Below, piece after piece: positions 1-15,066 of a DNA stretch of 36,928 nucleotides. The stretch covers positions 1-36,928 of the IMG/VR virus record IMGVR_UViG_2778261565_000018; one strand, written 5' to 3'. Each line of letters begins with the position of its first letter. Position 1 is the stretch's first letter. Under the pieces are notes generated by a model. The model ran no database searches, was not told where the DNA came from, and worked only from the letters and a program-made list of their open reading frames with translations. The stretch is from a virus. Its lineage: Duplodnaviria; Heunggongvirae; Uroviricota; Caudoviricetes. Both the position numbers and the translations under genes were made by a program.

Positions 1-1284
1 TTACTTCTTCGCCTCTGCAACCACTTTGCTACCCACGCCGCGGTTATTGTATTCCCACATGCGGTTGTAGTTAGTGTCATTCAGATTGCGTTGTATTTCG
101 TCGCTATCGTCAACACTGCCGGTGTTACCTGCGAATGGACGATTGGAAATCACCGCATCGGCCCACGGTTTCGCCGTGTTAAAACCTTCGTTGATGGCGC
201 TATCACGGATCACCACCTGACCGTTGGTATTGGCATCAACATCCAGCGAGCGGCCCAGTTGCGCCACGCCATCACCGGAAGCATTGAAACGGCTGTTTAC
301 GGCGAGGAAACCGTAGTAAATGTTGGACAGCGTAGCCGGTGCAAACACATACGCTTCTTGCTGGGTACGGGAGTTCACCACGCGGAATTCGGTGTTATCG
401 AACACCACTGCGCCGCGACCAGAAACGATATCCACATCCCCTTCAATATAGCTGTTGGTCACCAGCGTACGCGGCTGACGATTCGTTTCCAGACGGTTCT
501 GCACACCGCTATTGGTGACAAAGAAGGTGTTCTGACGACCGAGAATGTTAACGTTGTTAATCTGTACCTGGTCACCATCAGTACGCAGTGCCACCGCCGG
601 ATGGTTACCCGCATCTACGCTATCACCCAGCGTGTTTTCGATGGTCAGGTTTTGCAGTTGCAGGCCATTGTTTTGTGACCAGAAGACCGCAGAGCAGAGA
701 ACACCGATACTGTCGCTGCGTTTGCTCTGGCAGCTATCGTACATATACCACGCTGGTTTACCTGGCATATATTTGCCGCGCGGGTTGACGTCGTGACGCC
801 AGTCGGCAGGGCTCATGCCCCCATCAAGGGAAAGCCCAATCTTCACATCAATCGGTTTTTCACCTGTACCGTACAGAGTAATTCCACCCGGAGCGGCAGG
901 GACATATACCGTTCCATGATACTCACCAGGCATCACGGCAATATACTGGCGCTTGTTGGTACGCTTGATAATTGCCGCATCTACCGCCGCCTGAATCGTG
1001 GTATGCGTTACACCTTGAGTACCCGCCGGGCCGACAACAAAGTCAGGTTGCGCAGGCAAGGTAATTGGGGAAGGATTCCACGCTGCCGCACCTGGTGTCA
1101 GGGATGCAAAATAGTGTTGAGCATCGAAATTCTGCGCTTCTTTTGCCGACAGAATCGGGCGTGAAGAGGTACCAGGCGCGGTTTGATCAGAAGGACGTTG
1201 ATCGGGCGGTGTTGAGCTACAGGCGGTCAGCGTCACGCCAAAAGCCAATGCCAGCGCCAGACGGGAAACTGAAAATGTGTTCAC
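1..1284 (-). CDS. ybhC: Host YbhC, pectinesterase-family acyl-CoA thioesterase lipoprotein (complete, 427 aa)
   Basis: Full ORF in track; N-terminal signal peptide with lipobox LTAC; recognised as the E. coli gene flanking attB-lambda. Confidence 0.8.
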   Translation of the reverse strand: MNTFSVSRLALALAFGVTLTACSSTPPDQRPSDQTAPGTSSRPILSAKEAQNFDAQHYFASLTPGAAAWNPSPITLPAQPDFVVGPAGTQGVTHTTIQAAVDAAIIKRTNKRQYIAVMPGEYHGTVYVPAAPGGITLYGTGEKPIDVKIGLSLDGGMSPADWRHDVNPRGKYMPGKPAWYMYDSCQSKRSDSIGVLCSAVFWSQNNGLQLQNLTIENTLGDSVDAGNHPAVALRTDGDQVQINNVNILGRQNTFFVTNSGVQNRLETNRQPRTLVTNSYIEGDVDIVSGRGAVVFDNTEFRVVNSRTQQEAYVFAPATLSNIYYGFLAVNSRFNASGDGVAQLGRSLDVDANTNGQVVIRDSAINEGFNTAKPWADAVISNRPFAGNTGSVDDSDEIQRNLNDTNYNRMWEYNNRGVGSKVVAEAKK

Positions 1285-1418: not shown

Positions 1419-2489
1419 TTATTTGATTTCAATTTTGTCCCACTCCCTGCCTCTGTCATCACGATACTGTGATGCCATGGTGTCCGACTTATGCCCGAGA
1501 AGATGTTGAGCAAACTTATCGCTTATCTGCTTCTCATAGAGTCTTGCAGACAAACTGCGCAACTCGTGAAAGGTAGGCGGATCCCCTTCGAAGGAAAGAC
1601 CTGATGCTTTTCGTGCGCGCATAAAATACCTTGATACTGTGCCGGATGAAAGCGGTTCGCGACGAGTAGATGCAATTATGGTTTCTCCGCCAAGAATCTC
1701 TTTGCATTTATCAAGTGTTTCCTTCATTGATATTCCGAGAGCATCAACATGCAATACTGTTGGGATGGCAATTTTTACGCCTGTTTTGCTTTGCTCGACA
1801 TAAAGATATCCATCTACGATATCAGACCACTTCATTTCGCATAAATCACCAACTCGTTGCCCGGTAACAACAGCCAGTTCCATTGCAAGTCTGAGCCAAC
1901 ATGGTGATGATTCTGCTGCTTGATAAATTTTCAGGTATTCGTCAGCCGTAAGTCTTGATCTCCTTACCTCTGATTTTGCTGCGCGAGTGGCAGCGACAGG
2001 GTTTGTTGTTATATGGCCTTCAGCTATTGCCTCTCGGAATGCATCGCTCAGTGTTGATCTGATTAACTTGGCTGACGCCGCCTTGCCCTCGTCTATGTAT
2101 CCATTGAGCATTGCCGCAATTTCTTTTGTGGTGATGTCTTCAAGTGGAGCATCAGGCAGACCCCTCCTTATTGCTTTAATTTTGCTCATGTAATTTATGA
2201 GTGTCTTCTGCTTGATTCCTCTGCTGGCCAGGATTTTTTCGTAGCGATCAAGCCATGAATGTAACGTAACGGAATTATCACTGTTGATTCTCGCTGTCAG
2301 AGGCTTGTGTTTGTGTCCTGAAAATAACTCAATGTTGGCCTGTATGGCTTCAGTGATTGCGATTCGCCTGTCTCTGCCTAATCCAAACTCTTTACCCGTC
2401 CTTGGGTCCCTGTAGCAGTAATATCCATTGTTTCTTATATAAAGGTTAGGGGGTAAATCCCGGCGCTCATGACTTCGCCTTCTTCCCAT
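1419..2489 (-). CDS. int: Integrase (tyrosine recombinase), lambda Int, 356 aa
   Basis: ORF track protein recognised as lambda Int; overlaps xis as in lambda. Confidence 0.97.
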   Translation of the reverse strand: MGRRRSHERRDLPPNLYIRNNGYYCYRDPRTGKEFGLGRDRRIAITEAIQANIELFSGHKHKPLTARINSDNSVTLHSWLDRYEKILASRGIKQKTLINYMSKIKAIRRGLPDAPLEDITTKEIAAMLNGYIDEGKAASAKLIRSTLSDAFREAIAEGHITTNPVAATRAAKSEVRRSRLTADEYLKIYQAAESSPCWLRLAMELAVVTGQRVGDLCEMKWSDIVDGYLYVEQSKTGVKIAIPTVLHVDALGISMKETLDKCKEILGGETIIASTRREPLSSGTVSRYFMRARKASGLSFEGDPPTFHELRSLSARLYEKQISDKFAQHLLGHKSDTMASQYRDDRGREWDKIEIK

Positions 2490-2685
2490 TTCTGATCCTC
2501 TTCAAAAGGCTACCTGTTACTGGTCGATTTAAGTCAACCTTTACCGCTGATTCGTGGAACAGATATTCTCTTCCATCCTTAACCGGAGGAGGGAATATCC
2601 TGCATTCGCGCACCCATCGACGAACTGTTTCAAGGCTTCTTGGGCGTCGCTGGCGAGCGTTCCACTCCTGAAGTGTCAAGTACAT
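2467..2685 (-). CDS. xis: Excisionase Xis, 72 aa
   Basis: 72-aa ORF MYLTLQEWNARQRRPRSLETVRRW matches lambda Xis; overlaps int start. Confidence 0.95.
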   Translation of the reverse strand: MYLTLQEWNARQRRPRSLETVRRWVRECRIFPPPVKDGREYLFHESAVKVDLNRPVTGSLLKRIRNGKKAKS

Positions 2686-2712
2686 CGCAAAGTCTCCGCA
2701 ATTACACGCAAG

Positions 2713-2732
2713 AAAAAACCGCCATCAGGCGG
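2713..2732 (-). terminator. Putative intrinsic terminator (CCGCC-tgat-GGCGG then T6 on minus strand)
   Basis: Hairpin plus T-run read on minus strand, overlapping stop of the small ORF upstream. Confidence 0.4.
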
Positions 2733-2892
2733 CTTGGTGTTCTTTCAGTTCTTCAATTCGAATATTGGTTATGTCTGCATGTGCTATCTGCGCCCATATC
2801 ATCCAGTGGTCGTAGCAGTCGTTGATGTTCTCCGCTTCGATAACTCTGTTGAATGGCTCTCCATTCCATTCTCCTGTGACTCGGAAGTGCAT
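2725..2892 (-). CDS. Small hypothetical protein (55 aa), lambda orf55-like
   Basis: Hand-translated minus-strand ORF MHFRVTGEWNGEPF...; below the ORF-track size cutoff; position between xis and ea8.5. Confidence 0.5.
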   Translation of the reverse strand: MHFRVTGEWNGEPFNRVIEAENINDCYDHWMIWAQIAHADITNIRIEELKEHQAA

Positions 2893-2980
2893 TTATCATC
2901 TCCATAAAACAAAACCCGCCGTAGCGAGTTCAGATAAAATAAATCCCCGCGAGTGCGAGGATTGTTATGTAATATTGGGT

Positions 2981-3262
2981 TTAATCATCTATATGTTTTG
3001 TACAGAGAGGGCAAGTATCGTTTCCACCGTACTCGTGATAATAATTTTGCACGGTATCAGTCATTTCTCGCACATTGCAGAATGGGGATTTGTCTTCATT
3101 AGACTTATAAACCTTCATGGAATATTTGTATGCCGACTTTATATCTATACCTTCATCTACATAAATACCTTCGTGATGTCTGCATGGAGACAAGACACCG
3201 GATCTGCACAACATTGATAACGCCCAATCTTTTTGCTCAGACTCTAACTCATTGATACTCAT
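2981..3262 (-). CDS. ea8.5: Ea8.5 b-region protein, 93 aa
   Basis: 93-aa cysteine-rich ORF at the lambda ea8.5 position and size. Confidence 0.8.
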   Translation of the reverse strand: MSINELESEQKDWALSMLCRSGVLSPCRHHEGIYVDEGIDIKSAYKYSMKVYKSNEDKSPFCNVREMTDTVQNYYHEYGGNDTCPLCTKHIDD

Positions 3263-3464
3263 TTATAAACTCCTTGCAATGTATGTCGTTTCAGCTAAAC
3301 GGTATCAGCAATGTTTATGTAAAGAAACAGTAAAATAATACTCAACCCGATGTTTGAGTACGGTCATCATCTGACACTACAGACTCTGGCATCGCTGTGA
3401 AGACGACGCGAAATTCAGCATTTTCACAAGCGTTATCTTTTACAAACCCGTATTCCTGCTCATA

Positions 3465-4016
3465 TCACTCTCCTTTGATGCGAATGCCTGTTGCAATGCT
3501 GTTTATGATGCTGTCAGTGCATGGGGTAGAAAGCTGGGCATCTCCAGCAATTCTCATGACCTCAACATCTGCATATCGAATACCGAGGTGTATCAGACCG
3601 GCTATACCTGACTTAAGCCGAGCATTTTCCATAAACAGATCCTTTGCCCGCTGTTTTTCTGCCTCAAGCTCAACGCGCAACTTCCCTACCGTTAACGCAA
3701 TCTCCTCGTTCTCCTGGTCGCGGCGTTTGATGTATTGCTGGTTTCTTTCCAGCTCATCCAGCAGCGCCAAGACGGTAGCGGGATTGGCTGCGGCGATGAA
3801 TTCAGCATTGGCCTGCTGTTCCATTTGGAAATCTTCATCGAAACCGCTTTCTGGATGCGCTCCTTCAATTCTGCAAATAGGAATATATCCAGCAACTTCA
3901 CGATGAATTAGCGCATCATCACCATCAAATCGGCTCTCTCCATATTCGAGCGACCACTCACCACACGTTGCTTTTTCTGCCTTGGCCCGCAGTGCCTGAG
4001 AGTTAATTTCGCTCAC
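3465..4016 (-). CDS. Ea22-like b-region protein, 183 aa
   Basis: N terminus MSEINSQALR and coiled-coil middle resemble lambda Ea22 from memory; correct position. Confidence 0.6.
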   Translation of the reverse strand: MSEINSQALRAKAEKATCGEWSLEYGESRFDGDDALIHREVAGYIPICRIEGAHPESGFDEDFQMEQQANAEFIAAANPATVLALLDELERNQQYIKRRDQENEEIALTVGKLRVELEAEKQRAKDLFMENARLKSGIAGLIHLGIRYADVEVMRIAGDAQLSTPCTDSIINSIATGIRIKGE

Positions 4017-4234
4017 TTCGAACCTCTCTGTTTACTGATAAGCTCCAGATCTTCCTGGCAACTTGCACAAGTCCGACAACCCTGAACGGCCAGGCGTCTT
4101 CGCTCATCTATGGGATCGCCACACTCACAACAATGAGTGGCAGATACAGCCTGGTGGTTCAGGCGGCGCATTTTTATTGCTGTGTTGCGCTGTAATTCTT
4201 CAATTTCTGATGCTGAATCAATGATGTCTGCCAT
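4013..4234 (-). CDS. TraR/DksA-family C4 zinc-finger protein (lambda Orf73-like)
   Basis: 73 aa with CxxC...CxxC motif (CCECGDPI...CRTCASC) typical of TraR/DksA-like proteins. Confidence 0.7.
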   Translation of the reverse strand: MADIIDSASEIEELQRNTAIKMRRLNHQAVSATHCCECGDPIDERRRLAVQGCRTCASCQEDLELISKQRGSK

Positions 4235-4332
4235 CTTCCATTAATCCCTGAATTGTTGGTTAATACGCTTGGGGGTAAATGCGAGCAATAAAAAAGGAGC
4301 CTGTAGCTCCCTGATAATTTTGCTTTTCATGT

Positions 4333-4548
4333 TCATCGTTCCTTAAAGACGCCGTTTAACATGCCGATTGCCAGGCTTAAATGAGTCGGTGTGAATCCCA
4401 TCAGCGTTACCGTTTCGCGGTGCTTCTTCAGTACGCTACGGCAAATGTCATCGACGTTTTTATCCGGAAACTGCTGTCTGGCTTTTTTGATTTCAGAATT
4501 AGCCTGACGGGCAATGCTGCGAAGGGCGTTTTCTTGCTGAGGTGTCAT
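4333..4548 (-). CDS. Hypothetical early protein (start ambiguous; alternative ATG at 4614)
   Basis: ORF track 4333-4614; in-frame Met at MTPQQENALR. Confidence 0.5.
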   Translation of the reverse strand: MTPQQENALRSIARQANSEIKKARQQFPDKNVDDICRSVLKKHRETVTLMGFTPTHLSLAIGMLNGVFKER

Positions 4549-4972: not shown

Positions 4973-5649
4973 CGCCATTGCTCCCCAAATACAAAACCAA
5001 TTTCAGCCAGTGCCTCGTCCATTTTTTCGATGAACTCCGGCACCATCTCGTCAAAACTCGCCATGTACTTTTCATTCCGCTCAATCACGACATAATGCAG
5101 GCCTTCACGCTTCATGCGCGGGTCATAGTTGGCAAAGTACCAGGCATCTTTTCGCGTCACCCACATGCTGTACTGCACCTGGGCCATGTAAGCCGATTTT
5201 ATTGCCTCGAAACCACCGAGCCGGAATTTCATGAAATCCCGGGAGGTAAACGGGCATTTCAGTTCAAGGCCGTTGCCGTCACTGCATAAACCATCGGGAG
5301 AGCAGGCGGTGCGCATACTTTCGTCGCGATAGATGATCGGGGATTCAGTAATATTCACGCCGGAAGTGAATTCAAACAGGGTTCTGGCGTCGTTCTCGTA
5401 CTGTTTTCCCCAGGCCAGCGCCTTAGCATTAACTTCCGGAGCCACACCGGTGCAAACCTCAGCCAGCAGGGTGTGGAAGTAGGACATTTTCATGTCAGGC
5501 CACTTCTTTCCTGAGCGGGGCTTTGCTATCACGTTGTGAACTTCTGAAGCGGTGATGACGCCGAGCCGTAATTTGTGCCATGCATCATCCCCCTGTTCGA
5601 CAGCTCTCACGTCGATCCCGGTACGCTGCAGGATAATGTCCGGTATCAT
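4969..5649 (-). CDS. exo: Lambda exonuclease (Red alpha), 226 aa
   Basis: Protein recognised as lambda Exo. Confidence 0.97.
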
Positions 5650-7720: not shown

Positions 7721-8170
7721 TTACTTAACCAATGATGCTGCATATTCGATAAGGTAAAGCTTTGGGGCCAGCCAAATTTTTAACCAAGTCATATTGGTTA
7801 CTACACCAATAATAAAAATCCCCCACAGAGTCAAAACTCCAACCAATGGCATGATAAGAAGATTAATATCACCTTTGCTATCCCAAACCATTGTCGGCCT
7901 GTATTTGGGATTTCCTTTCTCCCATGAATATCCTTCATCACCGATTTTACCTGTCTCAACTCTTTGGCACTGCTTCTTCATAAACCAGAAAACCAGTGGG
8001 ATTGTTAGAATGGCCATTAATGTTTTAATCAGACTGTCAACCATATTCCATAGCAGCAACTGATGAACAACATCAGGAATCTGTGCCTGGCTAAATGAAA
8101 CAGCCGCGTCTATTCCATTACTGGCTTTTTGCAGTAGTTCTACGAGAATCTTGTTTGCTTGTTCTTCCAT
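7721..8170 (-). CDS. Hypothetical membrane protein at the ral/sieB position (possible superinfection exclusion)
   Basis: 149-aa ORF with hydrophobic helices (LMAILTIPLVFWFM, LLIMPLVGVLTLWGIFIIGVV); visibly AT-rich. Confidence 0.55.
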   Translation of the reverse strand: MEEQANKILVELLQKASNGIDAAVSFSQAQIPDVVHQLLLWNMVDSLIKTLMAILTIPLVFWFMKKQCQRVETGKIGDEGYSWEKGNPKYRPTMVWDSKGDINLLIMPLVGVLTLWGIFIIGVVTNMTWLKIWLAPKLYLIEYAASLVK

Positions 8171-8309
8171 ATATCACCTTGATTGTAATAAGCATGAAAT
8201 TATTTACGGACAAAAATAAAGGCCACCATCAGGCAGCCTTGTAGTTCTGTTTACCAAGTTCTCTGGCAATCATTGTCGTCGTTCGTATTGTCCACACCAT
8301 TGATTCTTA

Positions 8310-8396
8310 TCAATAGTCGTAGTCATACGGATAGTCCTGGTATTGTTCCATCACATCCTGAGGATGCTCTTCGAACTCTTCAAATTCTTCTTCCAT
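8310..8396 (-). CDS. Possible acidic micropeptide (28 aa, MEEEFEEFEEHPQD...YDYDY)
   Basis: Hand-found ORF with GAGGTGAG Shine-Dalgarno upstream of ATG; may be spurious. Confidence 0.25.
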   Translation of the reverse strand: MEEEFEEFEEHPQDVMEQYQDYPYDYDY

Positions 8397-8454
8397 ATCT
8401 CACCTCAAATAAGTGGTTTGCTGCCTAATTTCATTTTCTGGCGACCAACACAAG

Positions 8455-8727
8455 TCATCTTGCTGTCAGTTGTTTGGATTTCCGGTAGCCTGCCGCGTAA
8501 AGAGCTACGTTCGGAAGACAAGTTGAACCTTCATATTTTCTGGTCAACGTTGTCAGTGTTATTACTTCTGCTCTCATTGCTGGTTTGCGCTTGCATTGCA
8601 AGACCACTCGTGAAGGGGTTGGCCTGTGTAGCTTGTCGGAGCTGATCGCCTCCTGACTTTGCAGATTTGCGCGACGAGCTCTACGGCGAGAAGCTGCGGT
8701 GCCTTTAAATTCTGTTTTTCTGGACAT
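8455..8727 (-). CDS. N: N-like transcription antiterminator (P22 gene 24 type), 90 aa
   Basis: Arginine-rich motif GTAASRRRARRANL; C terminus VALYAAGYRKSKQLTAR resembles P22-type N; GGAGG RBS; sits downstream of nutL. Confidence 0.75.
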   Translation of the reverse strand: MSRKTEFKGTAASRRRARRANLQSQEAISSDKLHRPTPSRVVLQCKRKPAMRAEVITLTTLTRKYEGSTCLPNVALYAAGYRKSKQLTAR

Positions 8728-8752
8728 GGATTCCTCCCGAATAAACTTTGGC

Positions 8753-8800
8753 GATGCAATCTCGAAGCTCCTCCTGAGACGGTTGCTTCGGCATTGCATC
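8753..8800 (-). promoter_or_regulatory. Extended N-leader hairpin (candidate RNase III or translational control element)
   Basis: GATGCAAT..CGAAGC-16 nt loop-GCTTCG..ATTGCATC, about 14 bp of pairing between nutL and the N RBS. Confidence 0.35.
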
Positions 8801-8825
8801 CCACAGCTTATGTGGTTGGGTGATC

Positions 8826-8871
8826 TGGCTTTTCAGCCACGTAGTCGAGAGTCGACGTTGTTTAAAGAGCC
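8826..8871 (-). promoter_or_regulatory. nutL: nutL (boxA GGCTCTTTAA; boxB UGGCU-GAAA-AGCCA)
   Basis: Minus-strand read; near-identical architecture to nutR at 11505-11550. Confidence 0.6.
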
Positions 8872-8916
8872 TGCCAGTCTGTTCCATTTGGCTTCCAGCG
8901 TCCTGCTGACGGTTAA

Positions 8917-8995
8917 ATAGTACGATATGTACTTTACAAGATCAATACAATTTGTTGTAAGTTGGCGTGGTTTTTTATAACGCTTTGTATTTAAT
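8917..8995 (-). promoter_or_regulatory. pL promoter with OL operator region
   Basis: Minus-strand TTGATC (-35), 17 bp, TACTAT (-10); motifs ATATGTACTTTAC and ACGCTTTGTA shared with OR. Confidence 0.45.
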
Positions 8996-9130
8996 AGTGT
9001 TGTTTTTTAGCGTGGATGTATTGTCTCGGCGATGTAAGGAGAGATCAGAATTGCGTGGTTTAGTGGGTTGCATCTATTTATTTTTCAATAAATATAATTG
9101 GTTATGTGTTTTTAGGTGGGCGAACGTGAG

Positions 9131-9158
9131 GCAAAGAAAACCCGGCGCTGAGGCCGGG
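9131..9158 (-). terminator. Intrinsic terminator ending the cI-distal operon
   Basis: CCCGGC-6 nt loop-GCCGGG followed on minus strand by TTTTCTTTG, 5 nt after the 250-aa ORF stop. Confidence 0.6.
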
Positions 9159-9163
9159 TTGTA

Positions 9164-9916
9164 TTATGCTGCAAGTCTCTTAATCCAAGTCTCTCTTTTG
9201 GAGAATGGTAGAACTTGGCTTGATTCATGGAAGAGTAAGGAGAGTTGTTGCATTTGATCACCAATTGCTTCGCTGTCTATAACAACAAATCTGTTGTTAT
9301 ACTCCTCACTTGAAGCTTTAAGATCAATTAGTTTCCCAAGCAATGAGTAAGCACTATTCCAGCTTCCTCCGTGTTTCACGCTTGATGTAAAAACGTATTT
9401 AGGTATGTCGGTTTTTATTGTTACAGGGACGGTAATTTGATGTCCACTCAAGCCATATACGTTTTCACGAAGAGAAAGTGCGTCTCTAAGCTCTGTGTGA
9501 TATAGATAATCAATAACCATACTTTCAAACTTTTCAGCTTGAACTGGCTGATACCAGTCTAACGACAAAGTTGATGCGAGTATACCAGCTCTAATTATGT
9601 TCGATGTAATCGCACCGACATCCTTTTCTGTTGCCCAAGCAATGATTTCTCCTCGAGCATTGAGTTCTGCGCCTTCTTTAAGCAGTAATTGTCGTATCTC
9701 ATCAAGTCGTTTTTTGGTAAGCGAGATCCCTCTTGCCTCCATATTCATTAAGGCATCGCATCTGTCACTAACTAAATACCTACCATTGACTTCACGGATA
9801 AAGGCACCGACATGCTCTCCATCATCACAGTAAGTGAATGGACTGATAATTCTCAAGGTCTTGCCTATTGGATGGCATTCGAAACCTAGTTGTGAGATCA
9901 CTGTTGAGCACATCAT
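9164..9916 (-). CDS. Hypothetical protein B (250 aa), distal gene of rex-slot cassette
   Basis: ORF track; ATGATG start overlaps upstream ORF stop (ATGA); no family recognised; AT-rich. Confidence 0.6.
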   Translation of the reverse strand: MMCSTVISQLGFECHPIGKTLRIISPFTYCDDGEHVGAFIREVNGRYLVSDRCDALMNMEARGISLTKKRLDEIRQLLLKEGAELNARGEIIAWATEKDVGAITSNIIRAGILASTLSLDWYQPVQAEKFESMVIDYLYHTELRDALSLRENVYGLSGHQITVPVTIKTDIPKYVFTSSVKHGGSWNSAYSLLGKLIDLKASSEEYNNRFVVIDSEAIGDQMQQLSLLFHESSQVLPFSKRETWIKRLAA

Positions 9917-10470
9917 ATTCCAAACCCCATTTGCCCCGACTCATCTTCAAGCGGTAAAGGTATTCTCCCAGAGTAAGTTATGTTCAGATGTTTACAGAAG
10001 TAATTCCAATACCCTACCAGGTCATCTGGGTTTATGTCATCTTCGATTGGAAACGCTATTCTATCACTATAGTATCCAGCTTCTTCATAGTATACATGGT
10101 AGTGAGCACCGTAAATGATATCTTGGTACTTCGGATGATCGACCTTGTAACTATTCGTGTGTTTGTCAAAGTGATAGGTATCTACCGCGAAAACCCTCTT
10201 GTTATGATAGAAAGCAATAATATTTATTTTAGGGTAAGAAATCGGGTCATCAGGTTCTGAATCCTGATCTGGTTTCCATTTCAGTTCAAACTTTAGCCCT
10301 TGTATAGGTATACAATCCTCATCCAAGGGGATGATATGAGCTTGTAGCCACATATCAGAGCGACTTGGTTTCTGTTTCCATTTAACGCCAGAAAAGTTAA
10401 CTATTTTTTTACAATAAAGTACTTTATCAACTTCTACTTGGCTTGGCTGATAATCATCTATTTTTGCCAA
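9913..10470 (-). CDS. Hypothetical protein A (up to 185 aa), proximal gene of rex-slot cassette
   Basis: ORF track; co-directional with cI, 39 nt downstream; only a TTG start at 10470 or an internal ATG near 10353; no family recognised. Confidence 0.5.
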   Translation of the reverse strand: MAKIDDYQPSQVEVDKVLYCKKIVNFSGVKWKQKPSRSDMWLQAHIIPLDEDCIPIQGLKFELKWKPDQDSEPDDPISYPKINIIAFYHNKRVFAVDTYHFDKHTNSYKVDHPKYQDIIYGAHYHVYYEEAGYYSDRIAFPIEDDINPDDLVGYWNYFCKHLNITYSGRIPLPLEDESGQMGFGI

Positions 10471-10509
10471 TGTTTACCGCCCTGTAAATTGTAGATAAAA
10501 GTGGTTTCA

Positions 10510-11169
10510 TCACCCAAACGTCTCTTCAGGCCATTGGCTGGCGATAACTTTCCCCACAACGGAACAACTCTCATTGCATGGGATCATTGGGTATTGTGGG
10601 TTTAGTGGCTGTAGAAACACCTGACCGCTATCCCTGATCAGTTTCTTGAAGGTAAATTCATCACCACCAAGTCTGGCTATGCAGAAATCGCCGGGCTCAA
10701 CAGCTTGCTCAGGGTCAACCAGAATTAACATCCCGTCAGGAAAGCTGGGTTTGGAACCTGTTGGTGCGGTCATTGAGTTACCTTCAACCTCAAGCCAGAA
10801 TGCAGAGTCACTGGCTTTTTTGGTTGTGCTTACCAATCTCTCCGCATCGCCTTTGGTAAAGGTTCTGAGTTCTGGAGAGAACATCCCAGCCTGAACATGA
10901 GAAAAAACAGGGTACTCATATTGTTTTTTAACTGGGGCCGATGAGTATTCGCCAACAGGTGAAAATGTCCCGTCGTGGTTGAATGATATGTTATCAATAC
11001 CAAGGTATTTAAACACCACACCAATATCACTAAGAGATGGATGACGAGATCCGCGCAACCAGTGTCCAATCCCACCCTGCGTCATACCTAGCTCTTCGGC
11101 TAACTTCTCTTGAGTTATGCCGAGCTCTTTCATTCTGGATCTAGCCAGTTCATACCATTTCATTTTCAT
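10510..11169 (-). CDS. cI: CI-type repressor: XRE-family HTH N-domain plus lambda-cI-identical C-terminal S24 domain
   Basis: C-terminal about 135 aa ([21 protein letters not shown]...QWPEETFG) match lambda cI; N-terminal HTH differs; start taken at MKMKWYEL, alternatives upstream. Confidence 0.9.
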
Positions 11170-11278
11170 GTCCTTATTATTACGCTTTGTACTGGAACCA
11201 TCCATGCACAATGTGTATTTTTACTTGTATTCGTAAAGTACATATTGTATTTTTATTCGTGTTTACTATGGAGGGCAT
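11170..11278 (+). promoter_or_regulatory. OR operator region with divergent pR/pRM
   Basis: Between divergent cI and cro; TTGTAT-17 bp-TATTTT candidate pR; motifs GTAAAGTACATAT and ACGCTTTGTA shared with OL. Confidence 0.5.
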
Positions 11279-11494
11279 ATGAGCAACCTACGAAAATATC
11301 GAGAGTCACTGAATATCTCTCAAACAACACTTGCTAAGGCAGTTGGATGCACACAGGGAGCTATCGGACATTGGGAATCTGGTCGTCGCTTCCCAGACCT
11401 TAAAACATGCCGTGCTCTTGTTGCATGCCTAAACAAGTTAGGCGCAAAAGTCAGTCTTGATGACGTGTTCCCGCCGGAACACAAAGCCGCTTAA
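11279..11494 (+). CDS. cro: Cro-like repressor (HTH), 71 aa, non-lambda type
   Basis: HTH motif ISQTTLAKAVGCTQGAIGHWESG; first rightward gene from OR; GGAGGG RBS. Confidence 0.8.
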   Translation: MSNLRKYRESLNISQTTLAKAVGCTQGAIGHWESGRRFPDLKTCRALVACLNKLGAKVSLDDVFPPEHKAA

Positions 11495-11504
11495 TAAGCG
11501 GATC

Positions 11505-11550
11505 CGCTCTTTGTAACAACGGACATTCGTCCTACGTCGCTGAAAAGCGA
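11505..11550 (+). promoter_or_regulatory. nutR: nutR (boxA CGCTCTTT; boxB UCGCU-GAAA-AGCGA)
   Basis: boxA-like motif then GNRA-loop hairpin; mirrors nutL. Confidence 0.6.
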
Positions 11551-11579
11551 GTTCCAAGATATCTGACCAACTAAGGCCA

Positions 11580-11597
11580 TATGCGTTTCCACGCATA
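11580..11597 (+). terminator. Candidate tR1-region hairpin
   Basis: TATGCGT-ttcc-ACGCATA between nutR and cII; no strong T-run. Confidence 0.3.
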
Positions 11598-11635
11598 CCT
11601 TTCAACTAACTATTCACTATTGGAAATCTTAAGAA

Positions 11636-11932
11636 ATGGAAAGAACAAGTTACAGCAAACTATCACAGCGTGACGTTGATCGCGCAGAAACAGATTTACT
11701 TATCAATCTGTCAGCTATTACCCAGCGCGGTCTGGCAAAGATGATTGGCTGTCATGAATCGAAGATAAGCAGAACGGACTGGAGATTTATTGCTTCGGTC
11801 TTGTGTGCTTTCGGAATGGCATCAGACATAAGTCCGATTAGCAGGGCTTTTAAGTATGCGCTTGATGGATTCACCAATAAAAAACGCCCGGCGGCAACCG
11901 AGCGTTCTGAACAAATCCAGATGGAATTCTGA
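11636..11932 (+). CDS. cII: CII transcriptional activator (hybrid: lambda-identical C terminus)
   Basis: C-terminal NKKRPAATERSEQIQMEF matches lambda CII; N-terminal part differs. Confidence 0.85.
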   Translation: MERTSYSKLSQRDVDRAETDLLINLSAITQRGLAKMIGCHESKISRTDWRFIASVLCAFGMASDISPISRAFKYALDGFTNKKRPAATERSEQIQMEF

Positions 11933-11964
11933 GGTCATTACTGGATCAATCCACAGGAGTCATT

Positions 11965-12864
11965 ATGACAAATACAGCAAAAATACTCAACTTCTGCAGA
12001 GGTAACTTTGCCAAACAGGAGCGTAATGTGGCAGATCTCGATGATGGTTACGCCAGACTATCAAATATGCTGCTTGAGGCTTATTCGGGCGCAGATCTGA
12101 CCAAGCGACAGTTTAAAGTGCTGCTTGCCATTCTGCGTAAAACCTATGGGTGGAATAAACCAATGGACAGAATCACCGATTCTCAACTTAGCGAGATTAC
12201 AAAGTTACCTGTCAAACGGTGCAATGAAGCCAAGTTAGAACTCGTCAGAATGAATATTATCAAGCAGCAAGGCGGCATGTTTGGACCAAATAAAAACATC
12301 TCAGAATGGTGTATCCCTCAAAACGAGGGACAATCCCCTAAAACGAGGGATAAAACATCCCTCAAATTGGGGGATTGCTATCCCTCAAAACAGGGGGACA
12401 CAAAAGACACTATTACAAAAGAAAAAAGAAAAGATTATTCGTCAGAGAATTCTGGCGAATCCTCTGACCAGCCAGAAAACGATCTTTCTGTGGTTAAACC
12501 GGATGCTGCAATTCAGAGCGGCAGCAAGTGGGGGACAGCAGAAGACCTGACCGCCGCAGAGTGGATGTTTGACATGGTGAAGACTATCGCACCATCAGCC
12601 AGAAAACCGAATTTTGCTGGGTGGGCTAACGATATCCGCCTGATGCGTGAACGTGACGGACGTAACCACCGCGACATGTGCGTGCTGTTCCGCTGGGCAT
12701 GCCAGGACAACTTCTGGTCCGGTAACGTGCTGAGCCCGGCCAAACTCCGCGATAAGTGGACCCAACTCGAAATCAACCGTAACAAGCAACAGGCTGGCGT
12801 GACAGCCGGAAAACCAAAACTCGACCTGACAAACACTGACTGGATTTACGGGGTGGATCTATGA
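11965..12864 (+). CDS. O: Replication initiator O, 299 aa
   Basis: Protein recognised as lambda O; contains ori iterons. Confidence 0.95.
   Translation: MTNTAKILNFCRGNFAKQERNVADLDDGYARLSNMLLEAYSGADLTKRQFKVLLAILRKTYGWNKPMDRITDSQLSEITKLPVKRCNEAKLELVRMNIIKQQGGMFGPNKNISEWCIPQNEGQSPKTRDKTSLKLGDCYPSKQGDTKDTITKEKRKDYSSENSGESSDQPENDLSVVKPDAAIQSGSKWGTAEDLTAAEWMFDMVKTIAPSARKPNFAGWANDIRLMRERDGRNHRDMCVLFRWACQDNFWSGNVLSPAKLRDKWTQLEINRNKQQAGVTAGKPKLDLTNTDWIYGVDL
12312..12440 (+). repeat. ori-lambda: four about 19-bp iterons (ATCCCTCAAAACGAGGG-like) plus AT-rich region
   Basis: Four tandem iteron copies at about 12312-12399 followed by A-rich tract, inside O. Confidence 0.9.
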
Positions 12865-14363: not shown

Positions 14364-14887
14364 CTATCAAATCAAATACGCCAGCACACGACAAGGACTG
14401 CTGGCAAACGCCGCTTTGGCTTTTTGATGCACTGGATATTGAGTTTGGATTCTGGCTGGATTCGGCAGCGAGCGACAAAAATGCTCTGTGTGCTCACTGG
14501 CTAACTGAGGCCGACGACGCGCTCAATTCTGAGTGGGTAAGCCACGGTGCAATCTGGAATAACCCACCGTACAGCAATATCAGGCCGTGGGTGGAAAAAG
14601 CCGCTGAGCAGTGCATACAACAGCGACAGACGGTAGTTATGCTTGTGCCAGAGGATATGTCAGTCGGATGGTTCAGCAAGGCTCTGGAGAGTATTGACGA
14701 AGTTCGCATCATCACTGATGGACGGATTAATTTTATCGAACCATCGACAGGGCTGGAGAAGAAGGGAAACAGCAAAGGTTCCATGCTGCTGATTTGGCGA
14801 CCGTTCATCAATCCTCGACGGATGTTTACTACCGTATCCAAAGCGGCATTGATGGCGATCGGGCAGGGCGTCAGGAGGGCAGCATGA
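14360..14887 (+). CDS. Phage-type DNA N6-adenine methyltransferase (Dam-like, orphan), 175 aa
   Basis: NPPY catalytic motif ([10 protein letters not shown]); occupies the lambda ninC/ninD slot; ATGA coupling with ninB. Confidence 0.8.
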
Positions 14888-15066
14888 GACGACAGCGACG
14901 AAGTATCACCGACATCATCTGCGAAAACTGCAAATACCTTCCAACGAAGCGCTCCAGAAATAAACGCAAGCCAATCCCAAAAGAATCTGACGTAAAAACC
15001 TTCAACTACACGGCTCACCTGTGGGATATCCGGTGGCTTAGAGAACGTGCGAGGAAAACAAGGTGA
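14884..15066 (+). CDS. ninE: NinE, 60 aa
   Basis: [30 protein letters not shown] matches lambda NinE. Confidence 0.85.

Follow-up and report, generated by a model that had tools for sequence, protein, structure and literature searches.

In a 36,928-nucleotide stretch of DNA, hereafter the window (IMG/VR record IMGVR_UViG_2778261565_000018, positions 1 to 36,928), two genes follow directly behind cI, which encodes the repressor of a lambda-like prophage of E. coli with a standard immunity region. Our analyses showed that these two open reading frames (ORFs), ORF-A and ORF-B, form a translationally coupled, two-gene extension of the cI operon that ends at the terminator tM and is exchanged as a unit. 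The pair, or cassette, is thus cargo of a slot between repressor and terminator, and as a horizontally exchanged module, presumably expressed in the lysogen, it most likely protects the lysogen from other phages, a reading we favor with some reservation. The features of the slot are as follows.

10510-11205, minus strand: cI repressor gene (Pfam Peptidase_S24, 1e-28; HTH_3, 2e-10), upstream boundary of the slot
10471-10509, minus strand: spacer of 39 nt between cI and ORF-A, with a Shine-Dalgarno-like AGGGCGG and without a terminator-like site
10470-9913, minus strand: ORF-A, 185 aa, TTG start (WP_001062368.1)
9916-9913, minus strand: ATGA overlap of ORF-A stop and ORF-B start, translational coupling
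9916-9164, minus strand: ORF-B, 250 aa, ATG start (WP_000968517.1)
9131-9160, minus strand: tM-type terminator, which closes the cI-A-B transcript and bounds the variable slot downstream

The cI-A-B unit and its slot

An earlier note on this DNA, made from the sequence alone, had described two co-directional ORFs of 185 and 250 aa right behind cI and on its strand, joined by an ATGA stop/start overlap and closed by an intrinsic terminator just before pL. As gene models, overlap, terminator and spacer were all confirmed, its coordinates and description are correct. The note had also placed the pair in the position of rexAB, and indeed the cassette sits between the cI stop and the terminator of the pRM transcript, upstream of pL (oL/pL at 8916-8960). 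The terminator combines the G+C-rich hairpin and the U-run of a Rho-independent site: its stem (9160-9139) begins 3 bases past the ORF-B stop, comprises 8 pairs, 6 of them G-C, and is followed by TTTTCTTTG to about position 9131. The hairpin folds with -17 kcal/mol (z = -3.5), none of 200 shuffled sequences folded equally well, and it is homologous to the 933W site annotated 'tM; putative terminator for pM transcript'. Given that A and B lie on the cI strand, before tM and upstream of pL, they should be expressed from pRM/pRE transcripts and not from the lytic promoters. An internal promoter like lambda pLIT was considered as well and rejected, as the 5 promoter-like sites found do not exceed the 6.3 expected in shuffled sequence. 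Nor is there a hidden RNA gene, as an Rfam scan of positions 8300-11700 returned no match at E ≤ 1.

A and B are real genes whose translation is coupled. Full-length homologue families exist for both, the two ORFs are included in PHROG families 1960 and 2017, and the RefSeq models have identical coordinates for both genes (the accessions were assigned from the identical RefSeq locus). In 8 pairwise comparisons per gene, nonsynonymous divergence (pN 0.14-0.43) was far below synonymous divergence (pS 0.71-0.89, saturated), and hence both genes are under purifying selection. The earlier note had warned that the gene model with the TTG start needed checking. This start proved genuine, since all full-length ORF-A homologues begin at the same MAK/MGK position, with GTG or TTG as start codon in 10 of 12 lineages (the window counted) and ATG in the remaining two. 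A weak start has thus been conserved and does not reflect a gene-model error. At the homologous loci, GGAG or GGA precedes the A start by about 7-10 nt, and the ATGA junction was kept at 10 of the 11 loci examined.

The exchange of the pair can be followed in prophages that share its surroundings. PhiR11_1 is 98.6% identical to window positions 8455-9160 and 98.9% identical to positions 10508-12000, with two unrelated genes between. Among complete E. coli genomes, 776 contain the cI/cro type of the window, only 237 of which have the cassette; in the roughly 540 genomes with this cI type that lack it, homology ends at the cI stop codon. On the other side, the terminator is common to five aligned examples, in which similarity begins exactly at the stem, and it is conserved in 933W and PhiR11_1 as well as in two further E. 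coli prophages whose cargo differs. The exact breakpoints and the common terminator thus precisely delimit a hypervariable slot between the cI stop and tM, and 9161-10507 represents one of its alleles.

E. coli prophages that share this cI and this terminator contain at least four other cargoes. These are (coordinates in the respective locus extracts) a pair of 283 aa and 163 aa without Pfam or PADLOC match (3061-4441), an overlapping pair of 144 aa and 104 aa (2708-3453), a DUF2335 protein (2614-3147) and a 'tRNA-OTHER' feature with small ORFs (2386-3232). By analogy of position, these alleles may be regarded as further defence candidates. In 933W, the slot reads cI-L0084-L0083-stk-L0081-tM, with a tM homologous to the window terminator. 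The Ser/Thr kinase Stk, which is known for phage exclusion, matches the PD-T4-6 defence kinase models, and L0084 (4295-4636 in the extract) is a DUF3024 protein of 113 aa that matches the PADLOC candidate PDC-S43 at E 4e-41. A 113-aa DUF3024 gene was also seen directly after cI, between cI and A-B, in Izhakiella and Providencia prophages (5044-5385, 5053-5394 and 5052-5393 in three locus extracts), and it is a recurrent companion cargo of the cI-to-tM slot.

The A+T-richness of the segment had earlier been read as a sign of horizontal acquisition. The cassette indeed has a GC content of 39.5%, compared with 46.2% for cI, 49.6% for N and 49.6% for the whole window, and its exact breakpoints mark it as a horizontally exchanged module. 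However, ea10 and orf149, two early-left genes nearby, are just as rich in A+T (38-40% GC), so that composition alone says little.

Outside E. coli, the order cI-A-B was found at 13 of 13 loci examined, each with a cI-type HTH/S24 repressor upstream on the same strand. These loci stem from Aeromonas caviae, Pectobacterium, Izhakiella, Yersinia, Providencia (two species), Xenorhabdus, Pantoea, Thorsellia and Pseudomonas phage phPA-G, and their repressors have about 30-57% identity to the window cI or are undetectable by BLAST. In the loci examined, the A-B pair is always together and always beside a cI-type repressor. Of 5,426 complete E. coli genomes, 239 (about 4%) carry the cassette, with at least 99% identity in every copy; it also occurs in the phages ev017, ev207, PhiR57_1, PhiR63_2 and Stx1_121427, and the reference strains ATCC 25922 and APEC O1 are among the carriers. 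A genome-wide locus search with the B alignment yielded close relatives only.

Several single loci deserve mention. Pseudomonas phage VB_PaD_phPA-G (PP083311.1) contains an unannotated ORF-A homologue at about 14512-15033 (MAKQK...GQMGFDV), an annotation gap in the record; it overlaps the start of the annotated ORF-B homologue by ATGA and lies downstream of a CI-like repressor and of a gene for 216 aa that matches PDC-S48 weakly. One more match, a 518-bp contig of the Actinomadura rugatobispora assembly (NZ_JBHSON010000334.1), is too short for judging synteny. It covers an A/B junction with 64-82% identity to the E. coli proteins and is probably an enterobacterial contamination. In E. coli 2013C-3342, the cassette is 100% identical to that of the window, the adjacent replication gene O contains an internal stop and is marked as a pseudogene in RefSeq, and sieB has an IS66 element to its left; this prophage copy is probably defective. 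Unlike there, the O ORF of the window (11965-12864) is intact.

The two proteins and published defence predictions

ORF-A and ORF-B are both soluble, acidic proteins. The AlphaFold2 model of ORF-B (pLDDT 78.5) featured two domains. Residues 1-116 correspond to a DUF1828 domain (Pfam match) with a type III secretion chaperone/YbjN-like fold, and residues from about 125 to 250 form a PD-(D/E)xK-fold domain with the alpha-beta-beta-beta-alpha-beta core. For residues 155-241, the DefensePredictor tables give DUF1829 (clan PDDEXK) by HHblits at 98.8% (PMC13092281); plain hmmscan did not detect DUF1829 in ORF-B. Residue conservation was analyzed in 21 sequences from an enterobacterial and a Pseudomonas clade, with identities down to 22%. 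In the C-terminal domain, G155, S157, G158, H159, W186, G194 and D198 are invariant, R209 is nearly so, most members have K195, and an acidic residue always occupies position 214. The canonical catalytic motif was not conserved across the two clades, with neither a conserved acid at the start of beta-2 nor (D/E)xK in beta-3, the site positions being inferred from secondary structure and not from superposition. We dropped a reading of the GxSGH motif as the GxSxG of a hydrolase, as it lies in a beta-hairpin and not in a strand-turn-helix. The protein ends in ...RLAA (window 9164-9175). This LAA end is found in 34 of 41 enterobacterial B homologues, and LAA or xAA occurs in about 110 of 118 overall, Pseudomonas proteins of about 25% identity included. 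In this it is similar to the ssrA tag and to C-motif 1 of ClpX substrates, a similarity that we take as a lead only.

For ORF-A, which is beta-rich, we found no recognizable fold and no structural relative. Its family is small, with 20 clusters (50% identity) in a set of 1.84 billion proteins and apparently stand-alone members of 76-184 aa, the shortest of which look like fragments. Invariant residues are K22, W31, R92, D97, N106, G121, H123, H125, F158 and P173, and H104 is nearly invariant. The C-terminal tail is conserved (SGQxGxxL or GQxxLL) yet disordered (pLDDT <50). Weak matches to Pfam DUF6978 (2.2e-4, 22 bits against a cut-off of 29.6 bits) and to PADLOC PDC-M24A (4.8e-4) cover the HxN...HxH region in the C-terminal third only; among 15 members of the A family, 5 match DUF6978, and matches to three PDC-M24A models total 7. 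A profile match to a designed Kelch-like repeat protein (8pjr, E 3e-12) was rejected because no single stretch passes the threshold, and we treated it as a summed repeat artifact.

ORF-B also leads to PADLOC, where residues 2-248 match positions 4-253 of the 256 in the PDC-M24B profile PDLC04540 at E 6.1e-10; a further match is to PDLC04539 (E 1.3e-7), and a Pseudomonas B homologue matches PDC-M24B at 3.5e-5. The order of PDC-M24 is FAM_00129>>FAM_00065, and the cassette has the same adjacent and co-directional A-then-B arrangement. PDC-M24 is among 145 untested PADLOC candidates, derived from genes embedded in BREX, DISARM or type I restriction-modification (RM) loci (10.1101/2024.01.29.577857). 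DefensePredictor (Science 2026) lists both proteins by their exact accessions, WP_000968517.1 and WP_001062368.1, under 'Predicted novel defense gene' (PMC13092281). With a cut-off at log-odds 4, its Table S10 on 3,000 E. coli genomes gives log-odds of 6.26 for WP_000968517.1 and 5.42 for WP_001062368.1, and Table S5 on an ECOR-type strain gives 5.64 for WP_000968518.1 and 4.90 for WP_001062368.1 (PMC13092281). The same work newly implicated DUF1829 in defence with the validated system DS-6 (HipAD), in which the DUF1829 protein was proposed as an antitoxin-like, DNA-binding partner, and it found PD-(D/E)xK to be the commonest domain among validated new systems (PMC13092281).

Other searches returned little. 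PADLOC models other than PDC-M24, e.g., Shedu or lactococcal Abi, gave no match to A or B at E ≤ 0.1, NCBIfam gave none, and sequence and profile searches of the PDB gave nothing credible. In the literature searched, we found no functional study of PhiR57/PhiR63, PDC-M24, DUF1828, DUF6978 or the WP accessions, and the supplements of Vassallo et al. 2022 contained nothing on A or B. The description of the cassette as unrecognized, made in the earlier note, hence holds for its function; as a prediction, the pair already appears in the published DefensePredictor tables and weakly matches the PDC-M24 family. The profile and structure searches proposed there resolved B into DUF1828 and a PD-(D/E)xK fold with a PDC-M24B match, and left A without a recognizable fold.

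Proposed function and alternatives

Taken together, the slot, the exchange of its cargo, occupants known from defence and two independent screens support the candidate defence or exclusion function suggested earlier, and the cassette is a credible, already-predicted defence candidate as far as can be judged computationally. Prophage defence cargo beside the repressor is a known theme. Examples are rexAB, the 933W stk region, BstA (PMC8585504) and the validated system DS-34, which consists of a CI repressor and an adjacent gene (PMC13092281). We hence consider it fairly probable that the lysogen expresses the cassette as a module for anti-phage defence or exclusion. Several observations weigh against this. 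The accessions of the cassette are absent from Table S6 with the 118 cloned units, and the validation rate of DefensePredictor was 45% overall (PMC13092281). The link from A to DUF6978 and PDC-M24A is weak, partial and below the Pfam threshold, and no known toxin fold was recognized in ORF-A. Promoter and terminator calls in the cassette region were not statistically enriched. As to the roles of the two proteins, B keeps an invariant SGH159 and D198, K195 and R209 in most members and an acidic position 214, residues that could form a non-canonical nuclease site, and its terminal LAA, which lies in a predicted helix, may be purely structural.

More tentatively, we may picture A and B as a toxin-antitoxin-like pair acting by abortive infection, a mechanism that we regard as possible but less likely than not. 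ORF-A with its invariant, enzyme-like D/H/N/HxH cluster would then be the effector, kept at a low level by the conserved GTG/TTG start, and translational coupling would ensure that any synthesis of A comes with synthesis of B. ORF-B might act as stoichiometric regulator and sensor of A: with its chaperone-like domain (DUF1828) it could bind the tail of A, which is conserved yet disordered, and its PD-(D/E)xK-fold domain would have lost the canonical catalytic residues. The ssrA-like LAA end could make B labile to ClpXP, and A would be freed once infection shuts off the host or disturbs proteolysis.

Alternatively, the roles may be reversed. B would then be a Shedu-like effector in which a DUF1828 sensor controls a non-canonical nuclease site (H159, K195, D198, E/D214) that cuts phage or host DNA, with A as sensor, activator or inhibitor. 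The HHblits assignment to a PDDEXK-clan family, the prominence of this fold among validated systems and the invariant polar residues that persist in the C-terminal domain of B all speak for such a nuclease. Yet neither the beta-2 acid nor the beta-3 (D/E)xK is conserved across the two clades, neither PADLOC nor Pfam matches included Shedu or another nuclease model, and the conserved weak start and the enzyme-like cluster of A would be left unexplained. We regard this arrangement, the main rival of the toxin-antitoxin-like model, as unlikely.

Two further explanations do without defence. As a toxin-antitoxin module for prophage addiction or stabilization, the pair would act on cells that have lost the prophage, by killing or arrest, and play no role against other phages, in line with its overlapping two-gene architecture with a weak start, a possibly labile LAA-ended partner and its tight linkage to the immunity region. 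However, the slot is freely exchangeable and often filled with unrelated cargo, and since about 540 of the 776 genomes with the same cI do without the cassette, it is not needed for prophage maintenance; moreover, BREX, DISARM and type I RM loci harbor its distant relatives, and both defence predictors score it as defensive. The pair could also regulate the lysis-lysogeny decision of its own prophage or serve another lysogenic-conversion function unrelated to phages. Its position implies co-transcription with cI, and RexA also biases the lambda switch (PMC11077077). Against this, neither A nor B is similar to RexA or RexB, no DNA-binding domain was detected in either, the same cI/cro switch functions in prophages with other cargo, and the pair accompanies repressors of widely differing sequence. 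A slot that is dispensable and interchangeable behind the same cI/cro makes both addiction alone and switch regulation less likely; we rate the latter as improbable and the former as very improbable, and keep to defence of the lysogen as the preferred function.

Prophage context and relation to known systems

The prophage is integrated beside ybhC, in what we take to be the classical lambda attachment-site neighborhood. RefSeq labels its 696-bp cI a 'LexA family protein'. Further features of the window are the following.

1-1284, minus strand: host gene ybhC, first gene of the window
1419-2489, minus strand: tyrosine integrase gene, after ybhC
8455-8727/8799, minus strand: N (Pfam match of the N peptide, E 2e-32)
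8916-8960, no strand assigned: oL/pL operator region, past the terminator and ahead of N; inverted repeats I1 and I9 match oR
11214-11263, no strand assigned: oR/pRM/pR operator region in the cI-cro interval; direct repeat D8 and inverted repeat I1 in common with oL
from 11279, plus strand: cro, then cII, O and P

Between ea10/DUF2528 and N, the window contains a 149-aa ORF (7721-8170, minus strand; phrog_3054, no Pfam match) that is strongly hydrophobic (maximum 19-residue Kyte-Doolittle value 2.45). PhiR57_1 and PhiR11_1 have ral and sieB at this place, and E. coli 90-3040 has a 149-aa hypothetical gene in the same ea10-N position. The interval looks like a second variable slot, and its cargo in the window is possibly a membrane exclusion protein.

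If the cassette indeed serves defence, about 4% of complete E. coli genomes carry an uncharacterized immunity module in a prophage repressor operon, which would be relevant to host range in phage therapy and to prophage competition. With at least five different cargoes seen, the bounded slot from the cI stop to tM also offers a ready catalogue of further candidates. As A is without known fold and B combines a chaperone-like domain with a degenerate nuclease fold, the mechanism could define the function of DUF1828, DUF1829 and DUF6978, and also that of the PADLOC candidate PDC-M24.

Among known systems, lambda RexA/RexB resembles the cassette in its layout, i.e., two co-directional genes right after cI on the same strand, upstream of oL/pL and placed for expression together with the repressor. 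The proteins differ, however. In BLASTP of A and B against RexA/RexB, the best E value was 0.99, against RexA nothing was found at E ≤ 10, and the Pfam RexA family (PF15969) did not match. RexB is a multi-pass membrane protein with 51 windows above 1.6 on the Kyte-Doolittle scale (19 residues), of which A and B have none (maxima 0.45 for A, 1.19 for B and 2.39 for RexB). Without a hydrophobic segment in A or B, a membrane-depolarization mechanism is not expected, and we ruled out RexAB homology, as neither sequence similarity nor a membrane protein was found.

Other relations concern single domains. In Shedu (SduA, DUF4263), as in ORF-B, an N-terminal domain of regulatory type precedes a C-terminal PD-(D/E)xK fold, although ORF-B matches no Shedu model, does not conserve the canonical motif and is accompanied in the cassette by a second, obligatory gene. 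DS-6B carries DUF1829, as does ORF-B by HHblits, and was proposed as the antitoxin-like partner of a toxin; in DS-6 (HipAD), however, the other gene encodes a HipA-like kinase and not a DUF6978-like protein, and DS-6B has DUF3037 where ORF-B has DUF1828. PDC-M24 shares the A-then-B two-gene architecture, with a match over the full length of B and a weak one over the HxN...HxH region of A. These matches are distant, and PDC-M24 stems from BREX, DISARM and type I RM loci, whereas the branch of the cassette always stands beside a prophage repressor. The stk region of 933W encodes entirely different proteins but occupies the same slot in front of the same terminator (82% identity over window positions 9040-9158), and its cargo includes a kinase gene and a DUF3024 gene that match defence models.

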